This document shows, piece by piece, positions 8,603 to 44,087 of a stretch of 64,000 nucleotides of DNA. A program made the translations under genes and the position numbers. The stretch is from Trueperaceae bacterium. GTDB lineage: Bacteria; Deinococcota; Deinococci; Deinococcales; Trueperaceae. The notes beneath the pieces were generated by a model that was given only the letters and a program-made list of their open reading frames with translations, did no database searches and was not told the DNA's origin. The DNA lies in assembly GCA_965215565.1 (NCBI GenBank), contig CBDCDZ010000004.1, forward strand, positions 2,464,001 to 2,528,000. The letters are read 5' to 3'. The stretch's first letter is position 1, and every line of letters begins with the position of its first letter.

Positions 8603-8713
8603 TAGCAGTTCCACGACATACTGAGACAAAGTGCCGCAGATATCATCTCTGAACGTACGTGCTAGAGCGTGTTGCTCAAAGTGAGAGCGTCTCAAACCAG
8701 ATGATACCTGCTA
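8603..8713 (+). mobile_element. MITE-like dispersed repeat, 111-bp core copy
   Basis: TAGCAGTTCCAC...CCGCAGATATCATCT...CGTGCTAG...AGTGAGAG...ACCAGATGATACCTGCTA; TAGCAG/CTGCTA inverted ends; same length and conserved blocks as 37876-37986. Confidence 0.8.
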
Positions 8714-15621: not shown

Positions 15622-16227
15622 TCACTCCACCGGCTTAACGACAACTCGCCTGTCGCGCCCCTCACCAGACGACTCACTCCTGACCGACGGGTCATCGGCG
15701 AGCGTCATGTGAATAACGCGGCGCTCGCCCGCGTTCATCGGGTCAAGCTCAACAGCGAAACCTGTTTTGCGCACCCGCGCCGCCGCTTTGCGCGCCTCAC
15801 CTCTCAACCTGTCGTCGCGGCGCGCCTTGTAACCGCCCACGTCGATGTTAACGCGCACATTGCCCTCTGACTTATCACGGGTCTCATCACGGTTGATGAC
15901 GGCGTTGGTGAGGTACTCCAGAGCCGCTAAGGTGCGCCCGCCGCGCCCGATAATCTTACCGGGATCGCCGCCGGTGATATCTATGATGACTTCGTCTTCG
16001 TCTGCGCGCCTAACTTCAACCGCGTAGCCAGGGTCGATGTTGAGGAGCAGATGGACTAAGAACGATTCGCAGCGCTCCGCCGCGTCGCCTTCGATCACGA
16101 GCGGCGCGACGAAGGGTTGTGAGGGAGCTGATTTGGGTAGTTCGGGCGTGGCAGACTCCTCTTCACCTGTATTGATGCCGAGGTTATCGAGGTACGTATC
16201 CAAATCGTTATTCTTATCGTCAGCCAC
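15622..16227 (-). CDS. jag: Jag/KhpB (EloR) KH-R3H RNA-binding protein
   Basis: GKIIGRGGRTLAALEYL (KH) and ERRVIH (R3H); position after yidC. Confidence 0.9.
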   Translation of the reverse strand: MADDKNNDLDTYLDNLGINTGEEESATPELPKSAPSQPFVAPLVIEGDAAERCESFLVHLLLNIDPGYAVEVRRADEDEVIIDITGGDPGKIIGRGGRTLAALEYLTNAVINRDETRDKSEGNVRVNIDVGGYKARRDDRLRGEARKAAARVRKTGFAVELDPMNAGERRVIHMTLADDPSVRSESSGEGRDRRVVVKPVE

Positions 16228-16297
16228 ACTAGCTCCTTAACATTGGTTTACAGGATGATAGATAATGCTTCGTTTTGACCTTTTGCGCTCTCTTTCG

Positions 16298-17887
16298 TTA
16301 CTTTGCTTTCGCCTGAGCGGTCGCAGCGGGGGGCGTAGACGTACGCTTAATGAGGAACTGCTGGAAGACTTGCACGACCATTGAGGTGATGAGGTAGAGC
16401 GTCACACCAGCGGGAAAGTTGAAGATGAAAAAGACGAACACACCGCTCATCAGGAGTTGCTGGCGAAGCGACTGCATGTTACCTTGCGCCGATACGAACG
16501 CTTGGCCCGCCATCACCACGACGTAGAGGAGCGGCAAGATGTAGTACGGATCGTTGAGACCCAAGTCGGGAATCCACAAAAAACCCTCGTTGAATTCGAA
16601 GTTGATAAAAACGCGCCACAAGATGATGAAGATAGGCATCTGCACAAGAATCGGCAAGCAGCCCCCCGCCGGGTTGACGCCCGCTTCCTTGTAGAGTTTC
16701 ATCGTTTCTTCAGTGAGCTTTTCGCGGTTGTCCTTATGTTTCTTTTGCAAGGTCTGCAGCTTGGGCTGAAGCTGCTGCATCCCCATCATCGACTTTGTCT
16801 GCGTGGCGATAAGCGGCCACACCAAGATGCGAAAGAGGAGCGTCAGCACGATAATGGAGAGTCCCCAGTTGCCGACGACGCCGTGAATCGTCTCTAACGC
16901 GACGACAATGCCCAGTGAGACGCGCCCTAAGATGTTGGGTCTGAAGAGGCCGGGCAAGTCGAGATAGTTCTCTTGCAGATAGCGCACCATCTCATTAGGG
17001 CCGCCGTACACCTCTAAGTCTAAAGTTACAGAGGCGTTCGCTTGACTTGGCAGCGTCTTAGCCAGCGCGATCTGACGCCCTGAGCGCGGCAGAGCGGCGA
17101 GGTCCTGTCCGCCTGCGCCTTCGGCGTTCGGATCAGGGCGCATAACGATGGCGAAGGCGCGGTTGTTGTTGTTGTTTTGTAGCGAGATGTAAGAGGGATT
17201 CTGGACGGGCTGCGACACGGGGTTGAGCGTAAAGTTTTCGCCTTGCCCTATTTTTATGACGGGCGTATTTTGTCGTCCGATACCGGAATAGGCGTACTGC
17301 ACCTCTACGGGCTCTTCGCCCGCCTCGGCGCGAGTAACGGTAACCTCTACATCTACCGAATTTCTGGCTGAGCTGACTAGAATGGTCTTTTCGACTGCGT
17401 AGCCGTTCGTCTGGTAGGAAAACTCGCCTAAGAGCGCGTCTTCGCCGTTACGCTCGACCTCTTGCCAGTTGCTCTCGGCGGTTTCGGGCTCGAGCCTCTC
17501 CCCGCCTACAAAAACCGCACCTCCAGGTATTTGCGCGGTGTACGGAATGAGGTTTTGGTTGTTGTTGAGGTTGTAGTTACCGCTGAAGTCTTGCCCGCGC
17601 TGCTGCTTAGCGAAAAGCGCAACGACTTCGCCGCTCTCGTCGAAGATATAGTCGACGCTCTTCGTGGTGATGAGCTTGAGGTCTTGACCTCTTACGTCGC
17701 ACCAAAATGAGCTAGGGTTTGGGGTGCAAAGCTCATCCAACTCTTCCGCGTTGCTAAACTGCGAGGCGCTAAAATCCTGGATACCGAACGTAACCCTGGC
17801 AAACGCAAACGAAACCAGAACGAGCGCGGCGAGGAGCGCGAGCGCCGAAAATACTTTACCTTTCAAAATTCCTCCGGGTGAGGGCAC
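16298..17887 (-). CDS. yidC: Membrane protein insertase
   Basis: GNWGLSIIVLT, LQPKLQ..K, LYKEAGVNPAGGCLP..QMPIF and FPAGVTLY motifs; start codon uncertain. Confidence 0.95.
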   Translation of the reverse strand: MPSPGGILKGKVFSALALLAALVLVSFAFARVTFGIQDFSASQFSNAEELDELCTPNPSSFWCDVRGQDLKLITTKSVDYIFDESGEVVALFAKQQRGQDFSGNYNLNNNQNLIPYTAQIPGGAVFVGGERLEPETAESNWQEVERNGEDALLGEFSYQTNGYAVEKTILVSSARNSVDVEVTVTRAEAGEEPVEVQYAYSGIGRQNTPVIKIGQGENFTLNPVSQPVQNPSYISLQNNNNNRAFAIVMRPDPNAEGAGGQDLAALPRSGRQIALAKTLPSQANASVTLDLEVYGGPNEMVRYLQENYLDLPGLFRPNILGRVSLGIVVALETIHGVVGNWGLSIIVLTLLFRILVWPLIATQTKSMMGMQQLQPKLQTLQKKHKDNREKLTEETMKLYKEAGVNPAGGCLPILVQMPIFIILWRVFINFEFNEGFLWIPDLGLNDPYYILPLLYVVVMAGQAFVSAQGNMQSLRQQLLMSGVFVFFIFNFPAGVTLYLITSMVVQVFQQFLIKRTSTPPAATAQAKAK

Positions 17888-17950
17888 GCCTTTGACGTGT
17901 CACCTTATGCGTGATGTTTCCCTCAGCGTTGTTTCGTACTGGGTGGCGGC

Positions 17951-18235
17951 TCACTTCGCGTCTCTCGAGGTGTGACCTACTTGGGTTGGAACGGGATCGA
18001 GCCCGCCAGGGTGAAACGGATGGCATTTGAGCACGCGCTTCAGCGCCAGATAGCTTCCTTTAAGGACACCGTGCCGCACAACCGCGTCCACGGCGTACTT
18101 GCTACACGTCGGGTGAAAGCGGCAGCTCGGACTTGCCTTGAGCGGTGACAAAAAGCGGCGGTATGTGCGCAGCGGAAGCAGCGCGAGTTGCTGCGCGAAC
18201 GACAGCTTGGTAGGAGCTTTCGCATCCTCTCTCAC
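17951..18235 (-). CDS. yidD: Membrane protein insertion efficiency factor
   Basis: [28 protein letters not shown]. Confidence 0.95.
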
Positions 18236-18570
18236 AGCGCTCCGCCCTTTTTGAGCGCGTAACGCAGCGCATCTTTGAGCTGCCAGTAGTCCGCGTCAGC
18301 GGCAACGGGTCTCGCGATGACGACGAGGTCGAAAGTTTTAGAAACCTTACCTTCTACAGTGAGCGCCCGAAGTGCCTCGCGTAGACGGCGGCGCACGCGG
18401 TTTCTCACCACGGCGTTGCCGACTTTTTTCGACACGACGATACCGACGCGCACACACGTTTCGCGGTTGCCGCGCCAGCGGAGGCTCAAAAGCTTTGCGT
18501 GCCCCGCCTTGCCGCGCCGCATCCTCTGAAACGCGCGGTCACCCTTCAAGGAGCAGACCGGCGTCACCAT
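18232..18570 (-). CDS. rnpA: Ribonuclease P protein component
   Basis: [24 protein letters not shown] (RNR motif). Confidence 0.95.
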
Positions 18571-18575
18571 AAGGG

Positions 18576-18719
18576 TTACTCGTCAGAGACGGAGAGCTTG
18601 GTGCGGCCTTTGGCGCGGCGGCGCTTAATGATGTTGCGGCCCGTCGAGGTCTTCATGCGAGCGCGGAAGCCGTGCGTCTTGGCACGCTTGCGCTTGTTGG
18701 GTTGATAGGTTCTTTTCAT
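18576..18719 (-). CDS. rpmH: 50S ribosomal protein L34
   Basis: [22 protein letters not shown]; true start 18719 with a GGAGG RBS. Confidence 0.97.
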
Positions 18720-19149
18720 CTCATTCCTCCAGTAGGGTGGGTGCGGGTTAAAGGGCGCAACTCCCAAGTACGCCGAGGAACCATGCGCCGACAAGACGTA
18801 AGAGCATACCATAGGTAGGGGTGTGGACGCTAGGCATGTCGATGCAAAGCTCGAACCAAGTTTGGCGCAATCAAGGACCGCTCGCCGACGCCCTAAACGA
18901 AGTGACGTCCTAAAATGGATACAAAAGCAGCTTCCTCAACTCATCTTTTAGCTCGCCTAGCAGAAGGCGAAACTCTTCGCATGAGGCCAAGTCTGCGCTT
19001 CGTTCTTCAGCGTGGACGGGGCGATGGACGTGCTCTGTTCGAGTCCCGCCACCCCGCTTCAAAACGGACCCCCTCTCGGTGTGACGAATGCACATCTCCC
19101 GCGCCCATTACGCGCTACACTTACTTCAAGTTCAGGGAGACCTGAACGA

Positions 19150-19223
19150 CTTCGGAAGCGATGACGTTTGTTCTGTATCTGGGCGCTTGGAACAAGCTGA
19201 GCTAGTAGCGCACCCGGCCGAGG
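19150..19223 (+). ncRNA. c-di-GMP-II riboswitch aptamer (copy 1 of a tandem pair)
   Basis: P1 CTTCGG/CCGAGG; GGAAGCGATGA...GAGCT kink-turn; P3 GTTTGTTC/GAACAAGC; loop TGGGCGCT pairs with AGCGC; 3' GCACCCGGCC. Confidence 0.85.
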
Positions 19224-19331
19224 GTGAACAACTCGCTTTTCACAAAGAAGTTTAGCCTCGGGCAAACTTCAATCTGCGAACCTCACTCGAGCAGCCGGGC
19301 TAAGTGCCCCTGGTCGAGCGTTTCTTATGGC

Positions 19332-19407
19332 GTTCGGAGGCGATGAACCGATTCTCCCTATTTGGGCATCATGGGACTCGGGGAGCCAGTGATGCAACCG
19401 GCCGAAC
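19332..19407 (+). ncRNA. c-di-GMP-II riboswitch aptamer (copy 2, GGAG variant)
   Basis: P1 GTTCGG/CCGAAC; GGAGGCGATGA...GAGCC; pseudoknot GCATCA/TGATGC covaries relative to copy 1; GCAACCGGCC. Confidence 0.8.
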
Positions 19408-19415
19408 TTAGGGTA

Positions 19416-19525
19416 TATCGGTTTCACAGTTACTGAGCTTGAATCACGCAGATATCATCTTTGAATATGCGTGCTAAGCCGTGCTTTTTCGACAGAGCGC
19501 GTCCGTAACCAGATGATACCTGCTC
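19416..19525 (+). mobile_element. MITE-like repeat, degenerate ~110-bp copy in the pilin leader
   Basis: CGCAGATATCATCTTTGAA..GCGTGCTA...AACCAGATGATACCTGCT; left end degenerate (TATCGGTTTCAC). Confidence 0.7.
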
Positions 19526-19565
19526 TACAAGGTGGTTGTGTCCATTCCACGAAAGGGTGGTTTGG

Positions 19566-20039
19566 ATGCGCAAAAGATTTTTATTTTTCGTTCTCGTAGT
19601 TTTAGGTTTAGCCAACGTCGCAGCGGCGCAAAGAAGTAGCAGCCACGACGTTAGCCTCAGCATCCCCAACATTCTCAGACTCAAAATTGACGATAGCGCG
19701 ACTCAAGACCGAGCGGACGTCGGTATCGACATTCGCGTGTCGAGCGGCGCGTTCGAAATCGCGCCTGCGGGTAGCAGCGTCCGGGTCATGGCGAACAGCG
19801 CGTGGCAGCTCTCCGCGAGCTACGTCCCAGCGAGCGAAGCGGACGCGGCGGCGCAGCTTATGTGGCGAGCCGAAGCGGATGAAAGCGGCTGGGAGCGCTT
19901 CACCTCTTATCCGCAGATCGTCGAACGCGGCGAGAATACGAGGGGCTGGCAGAATTTTGATCTTCGCTACGGGCTCCAGAGCCTACCAGCGGACGGGCAC
20001 TACCAGGGTACGGTGACCTATACGGTGACGCGCCCCTAA
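19566..20039 (+). CDS. Secreted pilin-like protein (minor subunit candidate)
   Basis: Start inferred at MRKRFLFF (Sec signal ending AAA); mature QRSSSHDVSLSIPNILRLKI; C-terminus GHYQGTVTYTVTRP. Confidence 0.7.
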   Translation: MRKRFLFFVLVVLGLANVAAAQRSSSHDVSLSIPNILRLKIDDSATQDRADVGIDIRVSSGAFEIAPAGSSVRVMANSAWQLSASYVPASEADAAAQLMWRAEADESGWERFTSYPQIVERGENTRGWQNFDLRYGLQSLPADGHYQGTVTYTVTRP

Positions 20040-20419
20040 TAAGGTACTACCCAGAATTTTGAATAGAAGCGCGAGGAGCTAAGCTCTATCTAAGCTTAGC
20101 CCCTTCTCGAGACCTCTTCTCGAAACTTATACCTCTATCATCGGGGCAACCCTTTCACGCTCCAAGGTGCATAGCGTTTCGCAAGACCTTCTTGAGACGC
20201 TACAACCTCTTGCAAATTGAGCTAGCTAAGGCGCTCCGAACGCGGCGACTTTTCGTGATATTTTTACACCTTTGAGCGGTTCCCTTCCGCGCGAACTTAG
20301 TGGAGTTTTTAACGTCTCTGAGCCACTTTCTTGTCAGAATTTTGTAAGAGCAAATCCGTATACTAATTTTAGTTAAACGCTCCTCCGCAACCCCAAATTC
20401 ACCCACGCGGAGGGTTCCT

Positions 20420-20492
20420 TTCGGAAGCGATGAAGTCTTGACCCGTACTTGGGCGCTTGGGCAAGATGGAGCTAGTAGCGCAACCGGCCGAA
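20420..20492 (+). ncRNA. c-di-GMP-II riboswitch aptamer (copy 3)
   Basis: P1 TTCGG/CCGAA; GGAAGCGATGA; P3 GTCTTG/CAAGAT; TGGGCGCT...GAGCTAGTAGCGCAACCGGCC; ends about 9 nt before the GGAGG RBS. Confidence 0.88.
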
Positions 20493-20512
20493 CCTATTCC
20501 GGGAGGAATACA

Positions 20513-21040
20513 ATGAAGAAAGTTTTTGGTTTACTCGCAGCCGCAGCCGTCCTCAGCACCAGCGTCGCCTTTGCTCAAGAGCAGCAGAGCCACGAAGTCG
20601 AGATTAAAATCCCGGACGTCTTAGGTATCCGCTTGACGAATGGAAACAGCAACGACGCAGTCGCTGAACCCACCGCTGTCTCCTTCATCTTAAATGACGG
20701 TCAGCTATCGTTCGACGGCGGTACGTTTAATCCAAGCAACTTAGGTGAGGGTAACTGGGACGACGTCAAGGTGTTCTCTAACCAATCCGGCTTCGACGTC
20801 AAGGTAGGCGTTGCGAACGGTCTCAGCTTCGACTGGACCAAAGTATCGGTTGCAGCAGACGGCTTAGCCAGCCCGTTCACCTTAGGCGCACTCAACCCTA
20901 ACATCATCACGAGTGCCGCAAAGACAAATGCGTGGACGAGCTTAGGCTTCGGTCCCGACGACTTCAAGCTCACGCTCGACGGCTCTGAAGATGCGGGCGA
21001 CTACAGCACCGAAGTAACCTACACCATCTCCCTTCCTTAA
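20513..21040 (+). CDS. Secreted pilin-like protein (major subunit candidate)
   Basis: GGGAGG RBS then ATG 20513; signal MKKVFGLLAAAAVLSTSVAFA; mature QEQQSHEVEIKIPDVLGIRL; C-terminus DGSEDAGDYSTEVTYTISLP; has its own riboswitch and a downstream hairpin. Confidence 0.8.
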   Translation: MKKVFGLLAAAAVLSTSVAFAQEQQSHEVEIKIPDVLGIRLTNGNSNDAVAEPTAVSFILNDGQLSFDGGTFNPSNLGEGNWDDVKVFSNQSGFDVKVGVANGLSFDWTKVSVAADGLASPFTLGALNPNIITSAAKTNAWTSLGFGPDDFKLTLDGSEDAGDYSTEVTYTISLP

Positions 21041-21060
21041 AACTAGCTAGATTCAAGGTC

Positions 21061-21083
21061 AGCCGCCGCATCTTGCGGCGGCT
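21061..21083 (+). terminator. Stem-loop after the major pilin-like gene (attenuator or stabiliser)
   Basis: AGCCGCCGCA-tct-TGCGGCGGCT with a weak U-tail. Confidence 0.55.
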
Positions 21084-21110
21084 ATCTTATCGTGAAAGGG
21101 GGAAGCTGTA

Positions 21111-21761
21111 ATGACACAGTTGCCATACGCTCGAGCTAAGCGTCTAAGACTCGCCAGAGCGTTCGCTTGTCTCGTCCTCATCTGCGCCGCACTCCACATG
21201 TCACTCGCCTCCGCGCAACAGGCTGACCATAAGACCGAGGTGTACATACCGAGCTACCTGGGCATCCGTATCATCAATGACGCCGGTGCCGCGCGCGGCT
21301 CGCCCGCGGTCAACTTCGACTACACTTCGGACGTGTCGGCTTACACGGACGCCTACAAAGGACCAGGGTACATAGGCGCTTCGGAGGTCACTGACTTTGC
21401 CGACGTGCAGGTGTCGGTACGTACCGGCTTCGCGTTTCCACTGTGGTACGTAACCGCTCAAGCGTCGCCGCTAGCCTACGAAGGTAGTCAGGGAGGTGCG
21501 GGACTTACTTTGGGAGATATCGAAGTGGTGCGTGGCTCGGTTTCTGGTCTCAACCAAGGAGCAGTCGTAGGGGGGTTAGGGCGTGTATTCGACGCCTGGA
21601 CGCTCGCTGTCAATCCTCAGCCAGTCGCCTATAGCTTTATCGGAACCTACGGATGGCGGTCTCTAGGCTTTAACGGTCTGGACTACCGCGTGGCTGTAGA
21701 CGGCGACGAAGACCCAGGCGAATATTCCACAACGGTGACCTATGCAATTTTCTATCCTTAG
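21111..21761 (+). CDS. Secreted pilin-like protein (minor subunit candidate)
   Basis: Signal ending ASA; mature QQADHKTEVYIPSYLGIRI; GWRSLGF..DYRVAVDGDEDPGEYSTTVTYAIFYP parallels the 20513 protein. Confidence 0.75.
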   Translation: MTQLPYARAKRLRLARAFACLVLICAALHMSLASAQQADHKTEVYIPSYLGIRIINDAGAARGSPAVNFDYTSDVSAYTDAYKGPGYIGASEVTDFADVQVSVRTGFAFPLWYVTAQASPLAYEGSQGGAGLTLGDIEVVRGSVSGLNQGAVVGGLGRVFDAWTLAVNPQPVAYSFIGTYGWRSLGFNGLDYRVAVDGDEDPGEYSTTVTYAIFYP

Positions 21762-22545
21762 AGCTATGGTCACCTCTTCCGCGAGAACGCTCGCCTTCTC
21801 CATACTGACGCTGCTCTTGGCTTCTTTTGCCCAAGCGTCCGACATCGGTCTCTCTCCACCTCGTCTCGCTCTCACAGGCAGCCCGGGGCAAACGCTCACC
21901 GAAACCATCATCTTAGTGACGGATAGCTCAGCGCCGCTACAAGTCAGCACGGAGATCAGCGACTGGACGCTCGACGCGACGGGCAACATCACCTTTTTAC
22001 CGGCGAACAGCTTAGAGCATAGCGCCGCCAACTGGATAAGCTTGGAGAGCACGGACTTTCTCTTGGAGCCCGACTCGAGCCGCGAACTGCGCGTCTCCGT
22101 CACGATTCCGCCTGACGCCAAAGGCGGCACCTATCACGACATGGTGTTCTTCCGCGTGGTGCCGCCCGAGTCAGTTCTTTCGGGCGTCGGCGTCGTGACC
22201 ACGACGCGCATCGGTCTGACGGTCTACATCACGGTGGCGGGCTCGGAGCAAAACAGCGCTGAAGTGGTGGACTTTTTTCAGCAGGACGAAGCCTCACTCA
22301 TGCTAGCAGTCGCCAACACGGGCAACACGCTCATGCGCTTGGGTGGCAACGTCGAGCTGCGCGACGAGACGGGCGAGGTTAGGTACACCGTGGAGGTCCC
22401 TGACGTGCCAGTTCTCCGCGACAGCGAGCGCGAGGTCTTACTTCCCTTGCCAGAAGTGGACGCGGGCTTCTACGTCGCTTTAGCGCTGATCCAGGACAGC
22501 CGGGGCGAACTGCTCGTGGCAGAGCTGCCGATCTCGGTTCCGTGA
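21742..22545 (+). CDS. Periplasmic pilus-assembly chaperone-like protein (PapD/DUF916-like)
   Basis: Signal peptide; SPPRL, DW.L..G, NWI, V.IP.DAKGGTYHDMVFF, RIGLTVY and NTGN motifs of two-Ig-domain chaperones; alternative start 21766. Confidence 0.7.
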   Translation: MQFSILRAMVTSSARTLAFSILTLLLASFAQASDIGLSPPRLALTGSPGQTLTETIILVTDSSAPLQVSTEISDWTLDATGNITFLPANSLEHSAANWISLESTDFLLEPDSSRELRVSVTIPPDAKGGTYHDMVFFRVVPPESVLSGVGVVTTTRIGLTVYITVAGSEQNSAEVVDFFQQDEASLMLAVANTGNTLMRLGGNVELRDETGEVRYTVEVPDVPVLRDSEREVLLPLPEVDAGFYVALALIQDSRGELLVAELPISVP

Positions 22546-23465
22546 AGATTGCGGCGAAAAGGCTAAGTGTCTGCTTAGCCTTTTTATGCTTTCTCTGCAC
22601 GCTATGTACGCTGAACCTAGCTGACGCGCAGAGGCTCCGCTTTCGCTCGTCCGGGCTCGTCACCTTCGCGCCGACGAGCGAGGTCTATTTGACGGCGCTG
22701 GGCGGCACCCTCGAGCCCGAATCCTCGAGCCCGGACGTTCGTATGCGCGTCGACAAGAGCCGCCGCTTTACCCTCAGCGTCGAGCCTACGCCTCGTCCGA
22801 GCGGCGCGCCCGAGTTACAGGCGCGCTACACCTTTACGACGAAAAGAGACGGCACGACAGTGACCCCCTGGCTACCGCTCAACGCTCCTTTTCAAAGCAC
22901 CTTTTCAAATATAGATAGACGCATGGACGTAAGTGTGGCGTACCGCGTACGGCTCACGGGTCAAGAGGTCGCGGGCAGCTATACGGTTGCGCTGACGTAC
23001 CGCGCGAACGATTCATCGGTGCGGCACGAGGTCCGCGTGGTCATCCCTACCGCAACGGCGCTGCGCTTAGATACCTCGCTCGTCACGGCGCAGAACGCCT
23101 TGCTCGACTTCGATTACGGCGGCGCGAACCTCAAAGCGTACTTGCGGGCTGTTGAAGCGCGCTCGCCTCTGAGCGCGACAGCGGATAACTTTCGCGCGCT
23201 CGAGGTCTTCAGCAACCACCCCCGGGGCTACACGGTCACAGTCGAAGTTGCGCAGCAAGACATCTCGCCTGGTGGCGACACGCTCGCCGATAGGCTCTAC
23301 CTCGCCGGGCAGCCCGCGAGGGGGCGGCGTTTTGTCAGCACGTCGCCGACGTACGGGTTCGAGCCGCTCATCTCGCCAGATGACTTCGCACTGCGCGTGG
23401 ACGGGCTCGAGGACCCCGGCCGCTATACCTTCCGCCTAACCTACGACGCGCGAGCGAACCCTTAG
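22542..23465 (+). CDS. Secreted two-domain pilin-like protein (tip candidate)
   Basis: GTGA overlap with the chaperone gene; two C-terminal-type motifs (GQEVAGSYTVALTY, GLEDPGRYTFRLTY) with an internal HEVRVVIPTATALRL. Confidence 0.7.
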   Translation: MKIAAKRLSVCLAFLCFLCTLCTLNLADAQRLRFRSSGLVTFAPTSEVYLTALGGTLEPESSSPDVRMRVDKSRRFTLSVEPTPRPSGAPELQARYTFTTKRDGTTVTPWLPLNAPFQSTFSNIDRRMDVSVAYRVRLTGQEVAGSYTVALTYRANDSSVRHEVRVVIPTATALRLDTSLVTAQNALLDFDYGGANLKAYLRAVEARSPLSATADNFRALEVFSNHPRGYTVTVEVAQQDISPGGDTLADRLYLAGQPARGRRFVSTSPTYGFEPLISPDDFALRVDGLEDPGRYTFRLTYDARANP

Positions 23466-23727
23466 GCTCACAAAAATGCCGCTTTATTCCCCGAGAGCGT
23501 CTACTCATGTTCGGGGGATATTCGAACATTTATCAAAAGACGCATAGCAGCCTAACTCAGTGGCTCTATCAAAAGTGGAGCCGAGTCGTCCCGCTCCTTA
23601 GAGGAAACCGAAATGCGCTGAGAGAATGACTGTTTGCCCTTTGCGAGCCCAACGATCCGTTTCCTCTGCATATCATGAACCTCTCAGCTCACCGCCGAGA
23701 AGTCCGCCTCCTACCGCAAGAGGTTCC

Positions 23728-26700
23728 CTAATCCGGCGCGTTCAGCACCCGCACCCTGCGCGTCTGCTCGACTACCGTGCCGTCCTCTCTCGTGGCGAGA
23801 AAGAGAAGGTCGTAGACGGCGTCATCGGCAGCGGCGACGACAGGGAGCTGCGCTTCGTATCGCCCCGGCTCGACTTCGGTGAGTTGCACGTCGCCTAGGG
23901 GGCTTTGCACGCTCACGTCAGCCGCTCCGAAAAGGGGTGTAGCGGAGAGGTCTAAGGCTTCTCCAGCGCGCACCGGACCGTCAGCGGCGGCGTCTAAAAG
24001 TGCGATGTCGGGGTCAATCACGAGCTGGCCCCGGCGGCTCGCCGTTTCAGCGCCGCGCCGCGCGCTGACCTCGAAGGGGTAGACGCCGGGCGGAGTGTCT
24101 TGAGGCACTACGACGCGCCCAAGCCACACATCGCCCCGCAGCGAGAGGCTGCTTGGGCCCGCTGCCGCGCTCACGCTCACCTCGTCCGCGTCGCCTTGAA
24201 CCCTCACGCTGACGAGCGGCGCAGCGCCGGGCGGAACGCGCTCGGTATCCAGCGTGACGCGGCGCACGCGCAGCGCCGACGAGCCGAAACTCCGCGCTCT
24301 AGTGCGGGCGGGCTGCAGCAGAAAGGTGACCTCGGTGACTTCGCCTGCTCGCATCGCGAGTTCGCGCGCGCTTTCGGCTATAAGGATGCTGCCAACAGGA
24401 TAGCTCATGAGTTGCAACGTTCCTTCGCCGGGCAGGAGACCTCTCGCCGAAAAGTTGCCCTGCTCGTCCGTGTTGAGCGAGCGGTAGAGCCCTTCAGGGT
24501 CGACGAGGAGCAGCCGGGCGGCTAAGCCGCGCGCGGGCGTGTCGGCGACGCCGTCCGCATCCGCGTCCTCGAGCACCCGCCCTCTAAGCGCCGCCGTCCG
24601 CACGAGGCGGAAGTCGTGCGTCGCCGTCTCCCTGAGCGCCACCTCCACGGAGACCGCATCCTCGCCCAACAAGCGGTAGGTGATCGGCAGACTTCCTAGC
24701 TCGAGGTTCACCTTATAGGTGCCGGGCGCAACTTCGGCGTGGTAGCGTCCCTCTTTGTCGGTCAGCAGCCTAAAGCGCCCGACTTTCACCTCAGCGCCCG
24801 CGAGCGGACCCGCGTCCGAGCGCACGACGCCCCCCACGCTACCGACGCGGCGACCTCCAGCAAGCTCGCTCACCGCGCGCGGCACGGGGATGTCGAAGGC
24901 GTAGTCGCTCGAGAGAGACAGCCCGAACGTCAAGGGCGCAGTGGCGTCCGCCGCGTAGCTGTAGCTCGCGTTGCCCGCCACGTCGACGCGCCACGGTCCG
25001 CTGTACCAGACCGTTCCTGCGTTGAGCCCTAGCTGCTTTTCGGAGAGGTTCCAGGTGCCGTTGCCAAAGAGCGTAAGCGGCGTGAACGTCGTCTGCAGTT
25101 TGAGGTCAAACTGACCGTCTAGGTGCGCGGTGCGCGGATAGTAGGTCAGATTACCGCCGAAGCTGTAGTAGTCTTCGCGGCTCTGCGACAGGCGCGCCGA
25201 CGCGCCTAAGCCGAGCCCGTCCGCGCCGTACACCACACCGAAGCGCGACTCCGTGCGCCACACTCGGGCGAGAGGTCCGTCGTCATACTGCAGCCTCGCG
25301 AAACCCTGCTGAGAGCCTATCTCTAAGCCTAACGTAAATTCACCGAGCGCAGACGGCACCTCACCGAGAACGGCGTCAAAGATAGAGTCAAGCACCAAAC
25401 GGTCCTGCAGACCGACGCTCCACTGCGCCTCGGTAGCGCTACCAGGGGGCGTCTCGTCTGAGGCGTCCTCACCGTTAGACTCTTCGCCGTCAGACCCTTC
25501 ACTAGAAGGTCCCTCGCTTAGAAACCAGTTGCCGCTGGCGTAGAGGTGCTCGCTCGCCCCATAAAGGTCAAGGCGTGCGGAGAGCGCCGCGTCTTCACCC
25601 AGGAACTGTGCGAGTTTGAACTGGCCCTCGAGCGTCCCTATGGAGGAGACGGTTTCCGCCTCGAGAGACAGATCGAGGGCGTCACCGTAGCGAGCGTTCC
25701 CTGCCAAGCTGAACGTGCCCAGGTCAGCGCCGCCCCGCACGCTGACCTGCACGCCGCCCCTTTCGACGCCGAGCCCGCCCGCCACCGCGACGTCTTCATC
25801 TCGGTACTCGCCCGCCAGATAGCCCGATGCGGTGTCCGTCAGCCCGCCCAACGCGCCCGCTACCGACCAGCGCGGCGCATAATAACTTCCCGACACGCCG
25901 ACGCCCGCTGTCAGACTCAAGCGATAAGGATCACTCGCGCCGCCGCCTAATTTTGCCGTCCAAGCTTCGTGGGTGAGCGAAGCGTAAGAACTCAGCGCGT
26001 CTTTAGCGTCCAGCCTCGCGTTCAAGGTCACGAAGTCGGAGAGGGAGCCCTCCACATTGAGTCCACCTCTCCACCCTTCGGTACCCAAGCTCGCGGAGGC
26101 GTCCGCTGCCAGCGCGAAGGGCGGCGGCTGCGGCGTGCCGAAGCGCGTCACCGAGAGCGTTTTGCGAACCTCCGTACCCTCTCTATCCTGCGCCGTTAAA
26201 ACGAGCGTATAGCGTCCTTCGCGCGGCACCTCGAGCCGCAAATCCAGCCGCTCCTGCGGCGCAAGCTCGCGCTCACGCGCCGCTAAAACCTCGTCTCTTT
26301 GGCGCAGCTCGAGGCGCGCTTGACTCCTCACATTACCCCGGTTGATGAGCGTGACGCTAAACCCCTCACTCAGCACGATTGCCTCGGGCGCTTCTAAATC
26401 CAACGATAAGCGCTCGCTCACGGTGACGCCGGTCTGAGCTTCGCTGCCGCCAAGCTCGAGCGTCACAATATTCTCTGTAAAAGCGGGTGCGTCGTTAGGA
26501 ACAGCTAACGTGAGGGCAACCGGACGGCTCCGCCCCGGCTCCAACGTCAGCGTGCCGGGCTGACGCAAGATTTGCCAGCCCAAAGACGAACGCGCCTCCG
26601 CCTCGACCTTCAGCGACTCCGCTCCCGGCGTCTGCGCGCGCGGAGCTTCTACGCGGAAAACCAGGGTTACGTAGTCACCTGGCGCGGCGAAACGGCTGTT

Positions 26701-26841
26701 GGGCGGCGTTAAGGTAAGAGACCCAGCTTGCGCCGCGCCGACGCCCGCCGAGATGAGAAGCCAAGCTAAGCTAAAAAAAACGAGGACGCGCCGCGCCGCT
26801 ACGCCTCTCCAGAAGAGCGTGACACCGAAAGCGCCCCTCAT
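23728..26841 (-). CDS. Large exported usher-like outer-membrane protein
   Basis: Signal peptide; N-terminal Ig-like segments; long amphipathic beta-strand region rich in G/Y/W; C-terminal carboxypeptidase-regulatory/SdrD-B-like modules (LRGRVLEDADADG); converges on the pilin operon. Confidence 0.6.
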   Translation of the reverse strand: MRGAFGVTLFWRGVAARRVLVFFSLAWLLISAGVGAAQAGSLTLTPPNSRFAAPGDYVTLVFRVEAPRAQTPGAESLKVEAEARSSLGWQILRQPGTLTLEPGRSRPVALTLAVPNDAPAFTENIVTLELGGSEAQTGVTVSERLSLDLEAPEAIVLSEGFSVTLINRGNVRSQARLELRQRDEVLAARERELAPQERLDLRLEVPREGRYTLVLTAQDREGTEVRKTLSVTRFGTPQPPPFALAADASASLGTEGWRGGLNVEGSLSDFVTLNARLDAKDALSSYASLTHEAWTAKLGGGASDPYRLSLTAGVGVSGSYYAPRWSVAGALGGLTDTASGYLAGEYRDEDVAVAGGLGVERGGVQVSVRGGADLGTFSLAGNARYGDALDLSLEAETVSSIGTLEGQFKLAQFLGEDAALSARLDLYGASEHLYASGNWFLSEGPSSEGSDGEESNGEDASDETPPGSATEAQWSVGLQDRLVLDSIFDAVLGEVPSALGEFTLGLEIGSQQGFARLQYDDGPLARVWRTESRFGVVYGADGLGLGASARLSQSREDYYSFGGNLTYYPRTAHLDGQFDLKLQTTFTPLTLFGNGTWNLSEKQLGLNAGTVWYSGPWRVDVAGNASYSYAADATAPLTFGLSLSSDYAFDIPVPRAVSELAGGRRVGSVGGVVRSDAGPLAGAEVKVGRFRLLTDKEGRYHAEVAPGTYKVNLELGSLPITYRLLGEDAVSVEVALRETATHDFRLVRTAALRGRVLEDADADGVADTPARGLAARLLLVDPEGLYRSLNTDEQGNFSARGLLPGEGTLQLMSYPVGSILIAESARELAMRAGEVTEVTFLLQPARTRARSFGSSALRVRRVTLDTERVPPGAAPLVSVRVQGDADEVSVSAAAGPSSLSLRGDVWLGRVVVPQDTPPGVYPFEVSARRGAETASRRGQLVIDPDIALLDAAADGPVRAGEALDLSATPLFGAADVSVQSPLGDVQLTEVEPGRYEAQLPVVAAADDAVYDLLFLATREDGTVVEQTRRVRVLNAPD

Positions 26842-28898: not shown

Positions 28899-31181
28899 CT
28901 ACTCCAAGTAGTCCCTAAACTTCGCCGGATTGCCGAACTCGTCACCTTGCAAGACGTACCACATCATGCCCGAGTCGGAGACGTCGCCACGGATGTTCGC
29001 GTCGTCGATGACCTTACCAACCCAGCGCGTGCCCGCGTCACCCGAGCTTTTCATCCACGCCCACGCCTCTTCGCCCACTGAGGTGCCGAGCCCATTCGCG
29101 CCGTTCTGGTCACGAATTGCTTGAAAGTTGAGCCCAGGAAAGTCGCGCTTGATGTCGGCTAGATTGTAGATATTGTCCGCGTCGTCGTGCGTGTCGTTCC
29201 AGTTCGAATGCGAAATCATCGTGACGTGCTGGAACTTTGAGGGGTCCGCCTGAGCGACACCGCGATAGGCGACGCCGTGCGGCCCGGCGACGACGAAGCA
29301 GAGACGGTTCGTGGCGCTCGAGGCGTTGATCGCCTGCGCGATGCTGTTCACCGAGCCCGAGAGGTCGCGCTGATCGTTGTAAATCCTCGACATGTCGTAG
29401 CCGATGCGCCGCGCGGTCTCCTCGACGGACTCGATCATCTGCTGCTCCATGCTCGGGTTGTTATCGCCCAAGTGCGAGCTGTGGTCCCAGTGGGCTAGAC
29501 GTCCTTGCTGACCTCTTTCGGCGAGGAGCAGCAGGGCCAGCGCAGACGCGCCGATGTCGTCGGGGTCGTGCTGGTTGCCGTCCGAACTCCAGGCGATTCG
29601 TTTGCAGTCGTAGTCTAGCTCGGGACCGAGATTGCCGGGCTCGGGCTGTGGGTCAGGTTGTGGACTTGGTTGTGGATCAGGTGACGCCTCGCCCGCTGCG
29701 GTAGGTCTCCAGAGGCTAGCGTCGTCCCTCTGACCTGTATTCCAAGCCACCTCGCCCGCTGCGACTAGAAAGCCTCGTCCTGCCTCGACGTTGTCGAAAC
29801 GGTAACCGTTTCCTTCCTGGACGACAGTCCAGCGCTTGTCAGCGCCGTCTGGCGCAGCTTCAGCCGTCCAGCGTACATCTCCGTCGGGGCGGGTGTCGAG
29901 CGCACCTCGGCCCGGAAGTTTATTAACGATGAGGTAGCTGCCGCCACCTGCGGGGACAAACTTGAAGTAGCTGTTGTCATCGCGGCTCTCAGCCTCGAGG
30001 AAGAGACCGTTCTCGGCGTCGGTGCTTAAAAGCCCCCCTTGCTGAACGTTCTCGAGGGTGTACCACGTGTCCGTCTGCGGAAATGAACCAGGCTCGGGCG
30101 AATCGACAGGATCAGAGGGCTCGGTAGGACCTGATGGGCCGTCGGCGCAGCGGTTCCTGATGGCGTCCTCTTGGGTAACGGAGTCGTGATAGAGAACGAT
30201 GCGGTCAATCTGATGTCCGTGCGAGCGCCCCGCGAGCTGCATCGTATAGGTGCCGGGTTCGCTAAAGTCGATAGCCATCTCACTCTTCTGGTGATTTTGG
30301 TCCGCTGTTGCTCCATAGTTAAATGAACCCTTCCCATTCCCAAACACCTTGATGAAGCCACCGTAGCTGCCGCCCCCGACCGGACCGAAGCGAGCCGCGT
30401 CCGGGAAGTTGACCCAAGAGTCGTTCGCCTTGTCGCCCGCTACGTCGTCAGGTTGCCGCATCGCCCAGGTAAAGCGGTACGTTCCGACTTGTTGAATTTC
30501 GAGCGCCACATCTACTACATCCGCTGGTTGCCCATTGTTCGCCTCTTTACTGAGCCCAAGCCACGTGGCGTACGCTCCGCCGCTCGCCGCGCCATCATTC
30601 ACAACTTGCCAAGCGCCCGTCAGCGGCAGCGACTCCGCCTCTAGCGTGGTAACCGAACATCCTTCGGGCGCTGGCGAGGGTTCCGGCGTAGGCGCTGGCT
30701 CGCTGGGTTGCCCAGGATTCGGGTCAGGCTGTGCGCCTGCCTCCACCACCTCGAAGCTGAGCTTTTGCGGCGTGCCCGCCTCTCCGCCCGCATTCTCAGA
30801 CGAATAGGGCGTCGCCGTCAGCTCATAAGAGCCCAGCTCCGGCGTCCAATCCATGTAGTCGCCCGCCGTATCGCCCGCTAGGGCATATGGCGCGTCACTT
30901 TCCGTGCGCACATCCTCACCGTTGAGCGTAAAGCGCACGCTGCCCGTCAGGTCCATATTCGCGCGGATGTTGAGTTGCCGCGTCGGTAGAGCGCTTAACT
31001 CGAGCGTCGCCCCTTGCATGATCGGGTCAAAGCCCGCGATGGGCTGATCGCTTCGCGCGTCAATTAGAGTAAAGCTCGAGGCGTTCGTCGGGTCTAGCCC
31101 ATCTAGCGCAGTCTGCTGGCACGCGAGCAATCCCAGCGCGATGAGCAAAAACGCTGCGAGAGGTGTGAAAACCCTACGCAT
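28899..31181 (-). CDS. Multidomain lipoprotein with carbohydrate-binding/ricin-like modules and a C-terminal Asp-rich putative hydrolase domain
   Basis: Lipobox LLAC; Pro-rich linkers separate four domains; C-terminal IAWSSDGNQHDPDDIGA. Confidence 0.6.
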   Translation of the reverse strand: MRRVFTPLAAFLLIALGLLACQQTALDGLDPTNASSFTLIDARSDQPIAGFDPIMQGATLELSALPTRQLNIRANMDLTGSVRFTLNGEDVRTESDAPYALAGDTAGDYMDWTPELGSYELTATPYSSENAGGEAGTPQKLSFEVVEAGAQPDPNPGQPSEPAPTPEPSPAPEGCSVTTLEAESLPLTGAWQVVNDGAASGGAYATWLGLSKEANNGQPADVVDVALEIQQVGTYRFTWAMRQPDDVAGDKANDSWVNFPDAARFGPVGGGSYGGFIKVFGNGKGSFNYGATADQNHQKSEMAIDFSEPGTYTMQLAGRSHGHQIDRIVLYHDSVTQEDAIRNRCADGPSGPTEPSDPVDSPEPGSFPQTDTWYTLENVQQGGLLSTDAENGLFLEAESRDDNSYFKFVPAGGGSYLIVNKLPGRGALDTRPDGDVRWTAEAAPDGADKRWTVVQEGNGYRFDNVEAGRGFLVAAGEVAWNTGQRDDASLWRPTAAGEASPDPQPSPQPDPQPEPGNLGPELDYDCKRIAWSSDGNQHDPDDIGASALALLLLAERGQQGRLAHWDHSSHLGDNNPSMEQQMIESVEETARRIGYDMSRIYNDQRDLSGSVNSIAQAINASSATNRLCFVVAGPHGVAYRGVAQADPSKFQHVTMISHSNWNDTHDDADNIYNLADIKRDFPGLNFQAIRDQNGANGLGTSVGEEAWAWMKSSGDAGTRWVGKVIDDANIRGDVSDSGMMWYVLQGDEFGNPAKFRDYLE

Positions 31182-41579: not shown

Positions 41580-41866
41580 AACCGTTTCAGCCTACCTCAT
41601 AATATTGTGGTGCGAAAGACCGCGTAAGTGGAGCGGAGTGCGAGTTCTAAGGCGTAGAGTACGTTTTCAAATCGGATGCCCGAGTCACTTGTAGTGTGCT
41701 GAGCGCATTTTTAGGAGGAGTACTAGCTCGAGCAAAGCCCTCTAAACCTCCCTCCTTGCCCACTTTTTCACACCCTTCACTTGCTCTTCACGTTCTTACA
41801 GAAATCTTACAGACCGAGCGGTTGGCTCGGCTTAAACTACATATATCACTGAGGGGAACGAACCCC

Positions 41867-42016
41867 ACCCCTCGGAAGCGATGACACTTGTTCTCTATGA
41901 ACCTTTAGCAGGCAATGACTTGCTAGGCACGCATCTCTAACCAGATGCTACCTGCAGCTAAAGGCTCTTCTGGGCGCTTGGAACAAGTCGAGCTAGTAGC
42001 GCAACCGGCCGAGGGT
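41867..42016 (+). ncRNA. c-di-GMP-II riboswitch aptamer (copy 4) with a ~70-nt insertion
   Basis: P1 CCCTCGG/CCGAGGG; GGAAGCGATGA; P3 ACTTGTTC/GAACAAGT; TGGGCGCT...GAGCTAGTAGCGCAACCGGCC; insertion at ~41899-41967. Confidence 0.8.
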
Positions 42017-42077
42017 AGCTCTTTGCTACGACTTGGTATCCACTACACTTTCTCATGGGGTTCCAGGGAGCAGAGCT

Positions 42078-44087
42078 ATGTCACCAGTGAACCGTTCATC
42101 CAAAGTAGCAAGCAAAGTAGTCAACACCCTTCTCACCCCAACCAATACTCAAACCAATACCCAAGCCGACACCCCAACGTCTGCCCGCGCCGCCAGACTC
42201 AAGCGCTACACCCGCTTAGGTCTTTTAGCCGCGAGCGCCTTTTTGTTCAGCGCTTGCAGCAGCGTCGAGACGCCCGAGCTAGAAGCGCAGGGCAGCGTCA
42301 AGTACATCAAGATGCGCGTCGCCTCTGACCGTGATGACGCCGAAGAGCGCGCCTCGGGCAAAGTCGTGACCTCTAGCACCGACTTAGAACTCACCTATGA
42401 TGTGAAGCGCGGTCAGCAGCTCGTGGGCGTGCGCTTTACCAACCTCAAGATTCCCCAGGGTGCCAAGATTCGCCGCGCCGAGGTGCGCTTCACCGCCGAC
42501 GAGATCGACAGAGGTGCGCTTAAGCTCAAGGTGTACGCCGACGACAGCGACAACGCCGCGCGCTTTGAGGAGAAGTCCCGCAACCTCTCTAAGCGCCCAG
42601 CCACCGCCGCCAAGGTGCGCTGGCAGCCCCAGGACTGGCGCAAGGTGGGCGAGCGCGGCGGCAAGCAGTTCACGCCCAACGTTGCGCCCCTGCTGCAAGA
42701 GGTGGTCAACCGCCGGGGCTGGCAGAGCGGCAACGCCTTCGCCGTGCTTTTCAGCAGCGAGAGCAAGCGCAACAAGCGTGTCGCCGAGTCCTACCGCGGC
42801 AACAAGCGCGCCGCCCCACAACTCTACGTCGAGTACATCCCCAGCAGCGCTGGTCCGAGTGCCCCTACGCCCAGCCCTGCACCTAGCCCTGCACCCAGCC
42901 CCGAGCCTCAGCCTGTCGCCGCGGCGAAGTCCGCTCTATACGTCTCGCCCACGGGCTCTGACAAGAACGACGGGCGGAGTGCCAAGAAGCCCCTCCAGAC
43001 CCTCGGGCAAGCGGCGAAGCTCGTCAAGCCGGGCGACACGGTCTACTTGCGCAGCGGCGTGCACAAGGGCTACCTCAGCAAGTCCTTTGAGACCGACGGC
43101 AGCAAAGACAAGCCCATCACCATCACCAGCTATCCTGGCGAGCGTGCCATCATCGACGGCAAGTCCCGCCACTGGAAAAACTACAAGAGCGTTTCCAACC
43201 CCACGCTTTTTAGAATCGCCGCCGACTACTACACGGTCCAGAACCTCACCTTCCGCCACGGAGCGGGGCGCGGGCTCTACCTCAAGGGTGACCACATCAG
43301 CGTGCGCAACGTCTTATCGCACAACCACCACAGCGACGGCATCTACTTACTAGGGGACTACGGCACCTTTGAAGACAGTGTTTCGCACTCCAACAACAGC
43401 TATCAGAACGGGGGCGAATCCGCTGACGGCATCAAGATCGCTGCGGGCACCAAGCACGTCGTGCGCAACTTTTTAGCCTACAACAACTCCGACGACGGCA
43501 TCGACGTCTTCTGCGGCAGCAGGTCTTTAGTCGAGTACAGCGTTGCGCACTCCAACGGGGCCGGGCATTCCGGTGACGGCAACGGGTTCAAGTTGGGTTG
43601 CCGCCGCACCGACAACAGCCAGAACATCGTTCGTTACAACGTCGCCTACAAAAACCGTGCCAACAACTTTGACGGCAACAGTGGAGGCGGGCTCACCATG
43701 CTCCACAACACCTCCTGGAAAGCGGGTGCCCACGGCTTCATCGCTTACGCTCCTAAGAGCAGTGGCAAAGCCCCCAACGTCCTCAAGAACAACCTCAGCT
43801 TTCAGGACAAGAAGACCAAGGGCATGAGCCGCGACGACAAGAGCAGCCACAACTCCTGGGACTTAAACATCAACAACCCCGACTTCACCAGCCTCAGCCC
43901 CTCCAACAAGAGCTTCTTGAAGTTAAGCTCCTCCTCCAAAGCTATTGACGCAGGCGTCAAGCTCAACCTCGCCTTCCAGGGCAAAGCCCCTGACCTAGGT
44001 GCCCTAGAAGGCAAGCAGAGCATCGCCTCGCTCTTAGGTGAAACCGTTAAAAAGTTACAAGGCGGGGGGCAGTTGGCAAGTAGGTAG
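42078..44087 (+). CDS. Lipoprotein with an N-terminal DNRLRE-like module and a PL9 (PelL-like) right-handed beta-helix
   Basis: GGGAG RBS and ATG 42078; lipobox FSAC; YVSPTGSD..G....P..T, ADG, NSDDGID, DGNGFKLG and APDLGA motifs. Confidence 0.75.
   Translation: MSPVNRSSKVASKVVNTLLTPTNTQTNTQADTPTSARAARLKRYTRLGLLAASAFLFSACSSVETPELEAQGSVKYIKMRVASDRDDAEERASGKVVTSSTDLELTYDVKRGQQLVGVRFTNLKIPQGAKIRRAEVRFTADEIDRGALKLKVYADDSDNAARFEEKSRNLSKRPATAAKVRWQPQDWRKVGERGGKQFTPNVAPLLQEVVNRRGWQSGNAFAVLFSSESKRNKRVAESYRGNKRAAPQLYVEYIPSSAGPSAPTPSPAPSPAPSPEPQPVAAAKSALYVSPTGSDKNDGRSAKKPLQTLGQAAKLVKPGDTVYLRSGVHKGYLSKSFETDGSKDKPITITSYPGERAIIDGKSRHWKNYKSVSNPTLFRIAADYYTVQNLTFRHGAGRGLYLKGDHISVRNVLSHNHHSDGIYLLGDYGTFEDSVSHSNNSYQNGGESADGIKIAAGTKHVVRNFLAYNNSDDGIDVFCGSRSLVEYSVAHSNGAGHSGDGNGFKLGCRRTDNSQNIVRYNVAYKNRANNFDGNSGGGLTMLHNTSWKAGAHGFIAYAPKSSGKAPNVLKNNLSFQDKKTKGMSRDDKSSHNSWDLNINNPDFTSLSPSNKSFLKLSSSSKAIDAGVKLNLAFQGKAPDLGALEGKQSIASLLGETVKKLQGGGQLASR

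Follow-up and report, generated by a model that had tools for sequence, protein, structure and literature searches.

Introduction

Archaic chaperone-usher (CU) loci have been reported in Deinococcota (PMC10104325), and the usher FimD is built from 24 strands plus a plug (PMC11459180). The WxL pili form the other closely related system. According to a 2026 preprint (10.64898/2026.10.17.759780), they are confined to Bacillota, apart from a minor satellite in Actinomycetota, their chaperones are membrane-anchored (96.7%), sortase is used and no usher is present; the chaperone suffices for polymerisation. The same preprint describes one donor-strand geometry for CU and WxL chaperone complexes and gives no link between WxL and classical chaperones at E 1e-20. 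Here we analyse a window of 64,000 nucleotides (the whole stretch of DNA studied) from a Trueperaceae bacterium (GCA_965215565.1, contig CBDCDZ010000004.1, positions 2,464,001 to 2,528,000); all coordinates below are those of the window unless stated otherwise. Between 19566 and 26841 it carries six open reading frames (ORFs), all intact and positioned as in the initial annotation, which had proposed a divergent pilus or surface-fibre system in a Deinococcota-like host. Gene content and structural models support that proposal: the locus most likely belongs to a Deinococcota family of chaperone-usher-type fibre systems, and an RNA aptamer probably controls its main subunit. All six proteins are presumably exported by Sec, judging from their N-terminal hydrophobic stretches, and the intact copy makes the locus usable as a reference for the system.

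The chaperone and its complex with a subunit

The gene at 21742-22545 (+) encodes a 267-aa protein that is most likely a soluble chaperone of two immunoglobulin-like (Ig) domains, with the donor strand predicted at mature residues 114-126. It had been annotated as PapD/DUF916-like, and profile comparison agrees, marking it as a two-Ig chaperone homologous to both PapD-type and DUF916/WxL chaperones. With hhalign, the chaperone profile matched the archaic, PapD_N-type chaperones of Deinococcota at 98.6% over 189 columns (nine sequences, three of them scanned and confirmed for PapD_N) and actinobacterial DUF916 proteins at 99.2% over 204 columns; reversed controls gave about 1% (0.3% for the archaic set). 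The archaic and DUF916 sets, both thin with 9 and 6 rows, matched each other at 95.0%. These alignments suggest a chaperone family intermediate between the PapD and DUF916/WxL types.

Pfam and NCBIfam scans placed the 21742 protein in no family. Among the 33 chaperone family members scanned, PapD_N found no match and WxLIP_PGBD matched seven weakly, below the Pfam cut-off. A 133-row chaperone profile searched against the PDB matched EfmWxLIP1, an Enterococcus WxL chaperone, best (E 2.6e-5), and did not find CfaA, CsuC or EcpB. Arg9 and Arg124 are conserved at 85% and 86%, respectively. No appended membrane helix was found on the chaperone, which ends with its second Ig domain; a 19-aa window with hydropathy of at least 1.6 occurs within the last 70 aa of 6 of the 133 rows, and in 21742 this window (1.71, residues 200-218), which contains Pro, Glu and Asp, falls within the second Ig domain.

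Modelled together, the 21742 chaperone and the 20513 subunit gave a complex score of 0.88 in three runs, compared with 0.06 for the best of three controls. Contacts agreed to at least 98% between runs and the partner pLDDT was at least 83. The mark used for such scores is reached by 116 of 157 solved pairs and 2 of 215 mismatched ones, and is roughly applicable with our own alignments. In the model, chaperone residues 122-126 run parallel to the last strand of the subunit (149-152), with contacts rising together, and also touch subunit residue 18, while chaperone residues 4-6 pair with subunit residues 16-18. Subunit residues 1-12 lie outside the confident interface. As modelled, this geometry is donor-strand complementation with a free N-terminal extension on the subunit; the alternative named in the initial annotation, subunits complete without strand complementation, finds no counterpart in the model. 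Polymerisation of the subunits into a fibre would then proceed by donor-strand exchange.

Pilin-like subunits

The probable major pilin is the 175-aa product of 20513-21040 (+), predicted to consist of an N-terminal donor strand and an incomplete beta-sandwich; we call it major because it is positioned behind the switch formed by aptamer 3. Its closer paralogue, the minor pilin at 21111-21761 (+, 216 aa), is 30% identical over 207 columns (pairwise E 1.6e-16). The first gene, 19566-20039 (+, 157 aa from the ATG at 19566), resembles the other subunits weakly (22% to 20513, pairwise E 1.6e-5). Homologues of it occur in loci L021-L023 and L027 and, inverted, in L029, L032 and L034. It may be a short, divergent pilin-like protein with its own riboswitch leader, acting as a minor subunit or as a regulator of length or anchoring.

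The fourth subunit gene, 22542-23465 (+, 307 aa), encodes a two-domain subunit of tip type. Its shared N-terminal motif starts at residue 162 and the C-terminal motif occurs twice, at 145 and 293, so that by its sequence the C-domain reads as a whole pilin whose donor motif directly follows the N-domain. The N-domain matched the pilin profile at 95.3%, with an alignment that begins only at pilin position 35; it therefore appears to have no free donor strand, as would a tip subunit, and a tip role is the likely one.

Both shared motifs named in the initial annotation are present in all four paralogues, with the qualification that the N-terminal one is internal in 22542. The C-terminal motif occurs in 4 of the 11,860 open stretches of at least 100 aa in the six frames of the genome, all four being these paralogues, and this rarity rules out a chance occurrence. 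A terminal Pro in all four and the confinement of Cys to the presumed signal peptides (by eye) also held. In the wider subunit family (114 alignment rows), the terminal Pro is common but not universal (76 rows), while the donor strand conserves alternating hydrophobic positions 8, 10 and 12, and Pro13 in 98% of rows. The missing disulfide had been presented as unusual. The mature parts are indeed free of Cys, but the trait is less unusual than implied, given that alternative-class pilins such as CfaB also do without a disulfide. A stand-alone AlphaFold2 run of 20513 on a 16-row alignment reached a pLDDT of 39, and its fold was not used.

One branch of the family without aptamers (L030, L031, L033, L037-L040, L045-L059) has larger first subunits of 250-330 aa, in which Cys is often present, inside an inserted region.

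The usher-like large protein

The gene at 23728-26841 (-) encodes a 1037-aa protein, given no assignment in the initial annotation, that models as an usher-like outer-membrane barrel protein. AlphaFold2 on 62 alignment rows (pLDDT 92, pTM 0.62) arranged it as a chaperone-like pair of Ig domains at the N-terminus, followed by a barrel and by four beta domains at the C-terminus. The predicted barrel (24886..26115, -; mature residues 204-613) has 26 consecutive strands by DSSP, a count that could be off by one hairpin. Its longest inter-strand segments are 32 and 18 aa; with none exceeding 32 aa, the model holds no inserted plug domain. Homologous proteins carry single insertions of at most 36 aa, although the span of the barrel reaches 492 aa in some.

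The N-terminal tandem Ig module (26140..26724, -) is chaperone-like and lacks most of the donor hairpin. It matched the chaperone profile at 97.4% over 165 columns, compared with 85.8% against the protein's own C-terminal Ig pair, our yardstick for generic Ig likeness; this difference makes shared ancestry of the module and the chaperone likely. Behind the barrel, in the place of usher C-terminal domains (CTDs) 1 and 2, lie two prealbumin-like domains (24310..24843, -; Pfam CarboxypepD_reg, 37.2 bits) that resemble these CTDs and matched the C-terminal part of archaic ushers at 86.5% with hhalign. One of eight family large proteins scanned, the L070 homologue, has CooC_C above its cut-off. Two further C-terminal beta domains in the AlphaFold2 model (23743..24270, -) are covered in 48 and 38 of the 62 rows and are absent from the forms of about 800 aa.

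Foldseek ranked FimD first for the large protein. In the VIA comparison PapC and FimD were among the top rows: model residues 201-616 aligned with PapC at Z 15.2 (root-mean-square deviation, rmsd, 5.7; 334 aligned), tied with LptD at Z 15.2, and FimD (9bog) aligned over model residues 200-803 at Z 12.4 (rmsd 11.2, 400 aligned). Neither Pfam Usher nor PapC_N matched the 1037-aa protein at E 1. A reading of the gene as an S-layer protein or autotransporter was rejected, the barrel being internal with usher-like flanks. The large gene had been described as converging on the operon, which is true here and turned out to be a local trait: this arrangement occurs in 12 of 52 loci, whereas the gene lies on the same strand in 40 of 52.

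Distribution in Deinococcota

Of 41 related genomes, 27 had a match to the chaperone protein and 17 to the large protein; a degenerate-pattern locus search with one protein returned one locus. Searched across 201 Deinococcota genomes, a 33-row chaperone profile had matches in 109. The best match was strong (E 4e-21 or better) in 94 of the 201, spread over all five families, and above 1e-13 in 15 of the 109. The four loci opened from these 15 (L075-L078) carry Cys-bearing pilins, three of them together with PapD_N chaperones. Pfam Usher was detected in 9 of the 201 genomes, all in one family, and not in the source genome; Pfam WxL was above its cut-off in none of the 201.

Sixty chaperone loci were fetched across the score range, not at random, and 56 remained after four of archaic type were set aside. 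The large gene lies beside the chaperone in 52 of the 56, across five families; of the other four, three stop at contig ends and one belongs to a genome with the large gene elsewhere. The genes thus occur together across Deinococcota, as the initial annotation had led one to expect. A 58-row subunit profile, which found 550 cluster representatives at E 0.001, matched 39 of the 56 loci, and most of the remaining ones have, upstream, a small gene whose start is signal-like and whose last strand is similar. In many loci there is just one subunit gene. The system was found in Thermaceae and Deinococcaceae, both of which include cultured organisms; a few genomes have 2-4 chaperone matches each, and in an annotated Deinococcus plasmid copy all genes are labelled hypothetical. 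Deinococcaceae also harbour canonical archaic loci, a visibly distinct set in which the pilins contain Cys. The archaic Deinococcota loci of PMC10104325 correspond to such separate Cys-pilin loci and not to the present family.

Look-alikes in Gemmatimonadota, Acidobacteriota and other groups, with one subunit match labelled Bacillota, are leads only. Actinobacterial plasmids of Arthrobacter, Streptomyces, Curtobacterium and Cellulosimicrobium (L083, L093-L097) carry cassettes of two genes, which encode a small exported protein (annotated as WxL in one case) and a DUF916-type protein, the latter mostly with a hydrophobic C-terminal tail.

Cyclic di-GMP-II riboswitches

Three full-length matches to the cyclic di-GMP (c-di-GMP) II riboswitch RF01786 lie in the leaders, all above the Rfam gathering score of 53.5, as the initial annotation had predicted. 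Aptamers 1 (19145-19228, +, 74.3 bits) and 2 (19327-19412, +, 66.5 bits) form a tandem pair before 19566, and aptamer 3 (20414-20498, +, 64.8 bits) precedes 20513. The genome holds four RF01786 matches above the cut-off, three of them at this locus, and 33 GGDEF matches. A tandem pair is also present in L021, L022, L023 and L029.

The ribosome-binding site of 20513 follows 12 bases after the end of aptamer 3. As an alternative to its P1 partner, the aptamer's 5' strand (20414-20424) can base-pair with the ribosome-binding region (20499-20509), in an anti-Shine-Dalgarno duplex of 11 bp and -15.7 kcal/mol, compared with -8.4 for P1; none of 300 shuffles gave a helix as strong. In RNA folding, which ignored the pseudoknot and the ligand, the Shine-Dalgarno sequence was unpaired at 0.12 when free and at 0.66 with P1 enforced. 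The rise in accessibility with P1 enforced was similar in L021, L022, L023 and L028, weak in L044 and not seen in L027, L042, L032 and L034. From folding and conservation, aptamer 3 is probably an ON switch for translation of the major subunit. A promoter and terminator scan of the locus stayed at chance level (2 vs 2.5 and 13 vs 9.5), and we therefore propose no terminator mechanism for aptamers 1 and 2.

Among the 52 loci with enough DNA, 23 have an aptamer within 3.5 kb upstream of the chaperone, one of which (L063) is probably unrelated. The scan model was seeded with Rfam matches from 14 of these loci, and reversed-sequence controls stayed below 11 bits. A c-di-GMP-II-like aptamer also precedes the pilin of a canonical archaic locus (L086:3606-3678), one of 12 canonical or archaic-type loci. 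Given this case and the large aptamer-free branch, the switch is a frequent partner of the system and not a defining part of it. The statement that the system is switched directly by c-di-GMP therefore finds support in the sequences of this clade and does not extend to the family as a whole.

In L029, L032 and L034 the 19566-like gene and its aptamer or aptamers are inverted relative to the operon, which creates back-to-back riboswitch leaders, and the aptamer on the major subunit is a GAG variant. The remaining RF01786 match of the genome (G000:C4:3833873-3833956, -) precedes a lipoprotein-like ORF. In the window, a fourth aptamer of c-di-GMP-II type (41865-42019, +; RF03169, 42.4 bits), whose loop carries an insertion of about 70 bases, lies ahead of a lipoprotein-like ORF (42033-44087; 684 aa) that includes a beta-helix domain. 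Furthermore, the genome contains 401 matches (up to two mismatches) to a dispersed repeat whose conserved core is about 18 bases long, compared with 3-9 in shuffles; copies in the window lie at 8695, 19507, 28496, 37968 and 41939. One copy lies between aptamer 2 and 19566 and is kept in the congener locus L021; another lies inside the loop insertion of the fourth aptamer. The repeat is a candidate REP-like element or protein-binding site.

Genomic setting

The locus directly adjoins an rpmH-rnpA-yidD-yidC-jag-like cluster (15622-18700, -) and is transcribed away from it; YidC was assigned by Pfam and the other neighbours were recognised by eye. Two kb from the large gene lies a 760-aa lipoprotein-like protein (28899-31181, -) that has Pro-rich linkers and weakly matches a ricin-type lectin. 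Nothing was found that points to its membership in the pilus system.

Discussion

Taken together, the genes and models outline an assembly pathway. Sec would export all six proteins, and the soluble chaperone would complement each subunit with its strand 114-126, placed next to the first core strand and parallel to the last one, so that the N-terminal strand of the subunit stays free. At the outer-membrane barrel, by analogy with the known pathway, the free strand of an incoming subunit would displace the chaperone strand, linking the subunits into a non-covalent chain that passes through the pore. The 22542 protein would start the fibre as its tip, because it has no free donor strand; 20513 would form the shaft, with 21111 and 19566 as minor subunits. 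The pore is predicted to be wider than that of FimD or PapC and to have no inserted plug, and its chaperone-like N-terminal module may act in docking the complexes or in gating the pore. When c-di-GMP is absent, the ribosome-binding site of 20513 would be covered by the 5' strand of aptamer 3; the ligand would stabilise P1 and free the site, and fibres would be made at high c-di-GMP, probably for adhesion or biofilm formation. We consider this last step, the c-di-GMP ON switch, likely on the grounds of RNA folding and conservation.

Several observations weigh against this interpretation. The complex score may stem from likeness to solved chaperone-pilin complexes. The subunits matched no Pfam or NCBIfam family, and profile searches with their alignments matched no PDB chain. 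For the large protein, Foldseek TM-scores are low (0.2-0.3), a wide fold search puts MtrB first (Z 16.6, rmsd 4.4, 366 aligned) and PapC at Z 14.1, and the barrel has no clear sequence homology to archaic usher barrels (hhalign 58%, 22 columns). The large gene is unlinked in the congener G001. As for the switch, 29 of the 52 loci have no aptamer, and of 24 sites 14 were left unparsed; among the 10 parsed ones, all close kin, the anti-Shine-Dalgarno helix was stronger than in shuffles in 7.

The MtrB match, the plugless barrel and the unlinked gene in G001 would also fit a system in which the chaperone alone polymerises the subunits, as it suffices to do in WxL pili (10.64898/2026.10.17.759780), with the large protein serving as a general channel or as an envelope anchor resembling the MtrB sheath. 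Against this stand the adjacency of large gene and chaperone in 52 of 56 loci of five families and the usher-like C-terminal domains of the large protein; all large barrels score alike, so the MtrB match shows size and not function, and we regard this explanation as very unlikely. The same machinery could instead build, in place of a long pilus, a short tip fibrillum or an afimbrial coat on the surface, an idea to which the many loci with a single subunit gene lend some weight. It is improbable here: the locus has a gene of tip type and a subunit under its own switch whose donor strand is intact, which fit a design of tip plus shaft.

If the fibre system is as we propose, it matters in several respects. 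A diderm family similar to both PapD and WxL chaperones makes their common origin testable, and an usher without an inserted plug raises the question of how sealing and activation of its pore are achieved. In Deinococcota the family outnumbers Pfam-detectable ushers about tenfold (94 vs 9 of 201 genomes). Its occurrence in cultured lineages makes it accessible at the bench and may yield heat-stable non-covalent fibres, and the system offers a short RNA route from c-di-GMP to an adhesive structure. We found no report of c-di-GMP-II control of a chaperone-usher operon in the literature, and no description of the present family in full-text literature, although subscription papers and supplements such as the gene lists of riboswitch surveys could mention the genes.

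Comparison with known systems

Three established filings were rejected. Assignment to the archaic CU class (Csu/SCPU) fails on the absence of mature Cys, on the lack of an SCPU match in 58 subunit family members and on an hhalign value of only 5% against an SCPU profile of 14 sequences. The canonical usher family (PF00577) fails on the missing Pfam Usher and PapC_N matches and on a barrel of 26 DSSP strands with no inserted plug. WxL pili fail on the lack of a chaperone membrane helix and of a WxL-domain match, and on an hhalign value of only 11% against a thin WxL-type profile of six sequences. The low SCPU and WxL values also count among the points against the interpretation proposed here.

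What remains is a variant of chaperone-usher-type pili that standard profiles miss. It may be a class of its own, and we propose this tentatively: its chaperone would bridge the PapD and WxL families, its 26-strand plugless usher would be docked or gated by a chaperone-derived module without a donor strand, it would be the commonest donor-strand system in Deinococcota including Thermaceae, and in one branch it would be under translational ON control by c-di-GMP. A different classification of the same machinery, as a branch that has diverged far within the alternative (CFA/I, CS1, ECP) or archaic class, appears doubtful. Subunits without Cys and a two-domain tip, both as in the alternative class, the CooC_C match in one homologue and the homology of the chaperone to archaic PapD_N proteins argue for such a branch. 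However, PapD_N is absent from all 33 chaperones, the PDB search finds WxLIP and not CfaA, CsuC or EcpB, Pfam Usher is missing, the barrel has no plug and the archaic loci of Deinococcaceae are visibly different. For the alternative class in particular the observations are divided: sequence profiles matched no CfaB/EcpA-like pilin or CfaA/EcpB-like chaperone, and CooC_C passed its cut-off in one of the eight large proteins.

MtrB has 26 strands (PMC7198977), and the present barrel shares the size of MtrB and LptD; it differs from them in identity (7-10%) and in being flanked by Ig and prealbumin-like domains. A cytochrome partner was not seen among the genes scanned, unlike the case of MtrB. 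The present system is different from the tubular pili of cyanobacteria (PMC12397347) and from the CU system of Synechocystis (10.1101/130278). The riboswitches are full-length matches to the described RF01786 class.

With WxL (Elr) pili (10.64898/2026.10.17.759780; PMC10599100) the system shares the donor-strand logic, and EfmWxLIP1 is the closest solved relative of its chaperone by profile; it differs in a chaperone without a membrane helix, in an encoded barrel and in having no matched WxL-domain pilin. From CU pili in general it differs by the lack of Pfam Usher, PapD_N and SCPU matches and by a large protein with a chaperone-like tandem Ig N-terminus and extra C-terminal domains, from FimD and PapC by its 26-strand barrel with no inserted plug, and from the archaic Deinococcus systems by its Cys-less subunits. 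With the archaic and alternative CU pili (Csu, CupE; CFA/I, CS1, ECP) it has in common a soluble two-Ig chaperone with a donor strand modelled as parallel, subunits with an N-terminal extension, a two-domain tip, and an outer-membrane barrel followed by two CTD-like domains.

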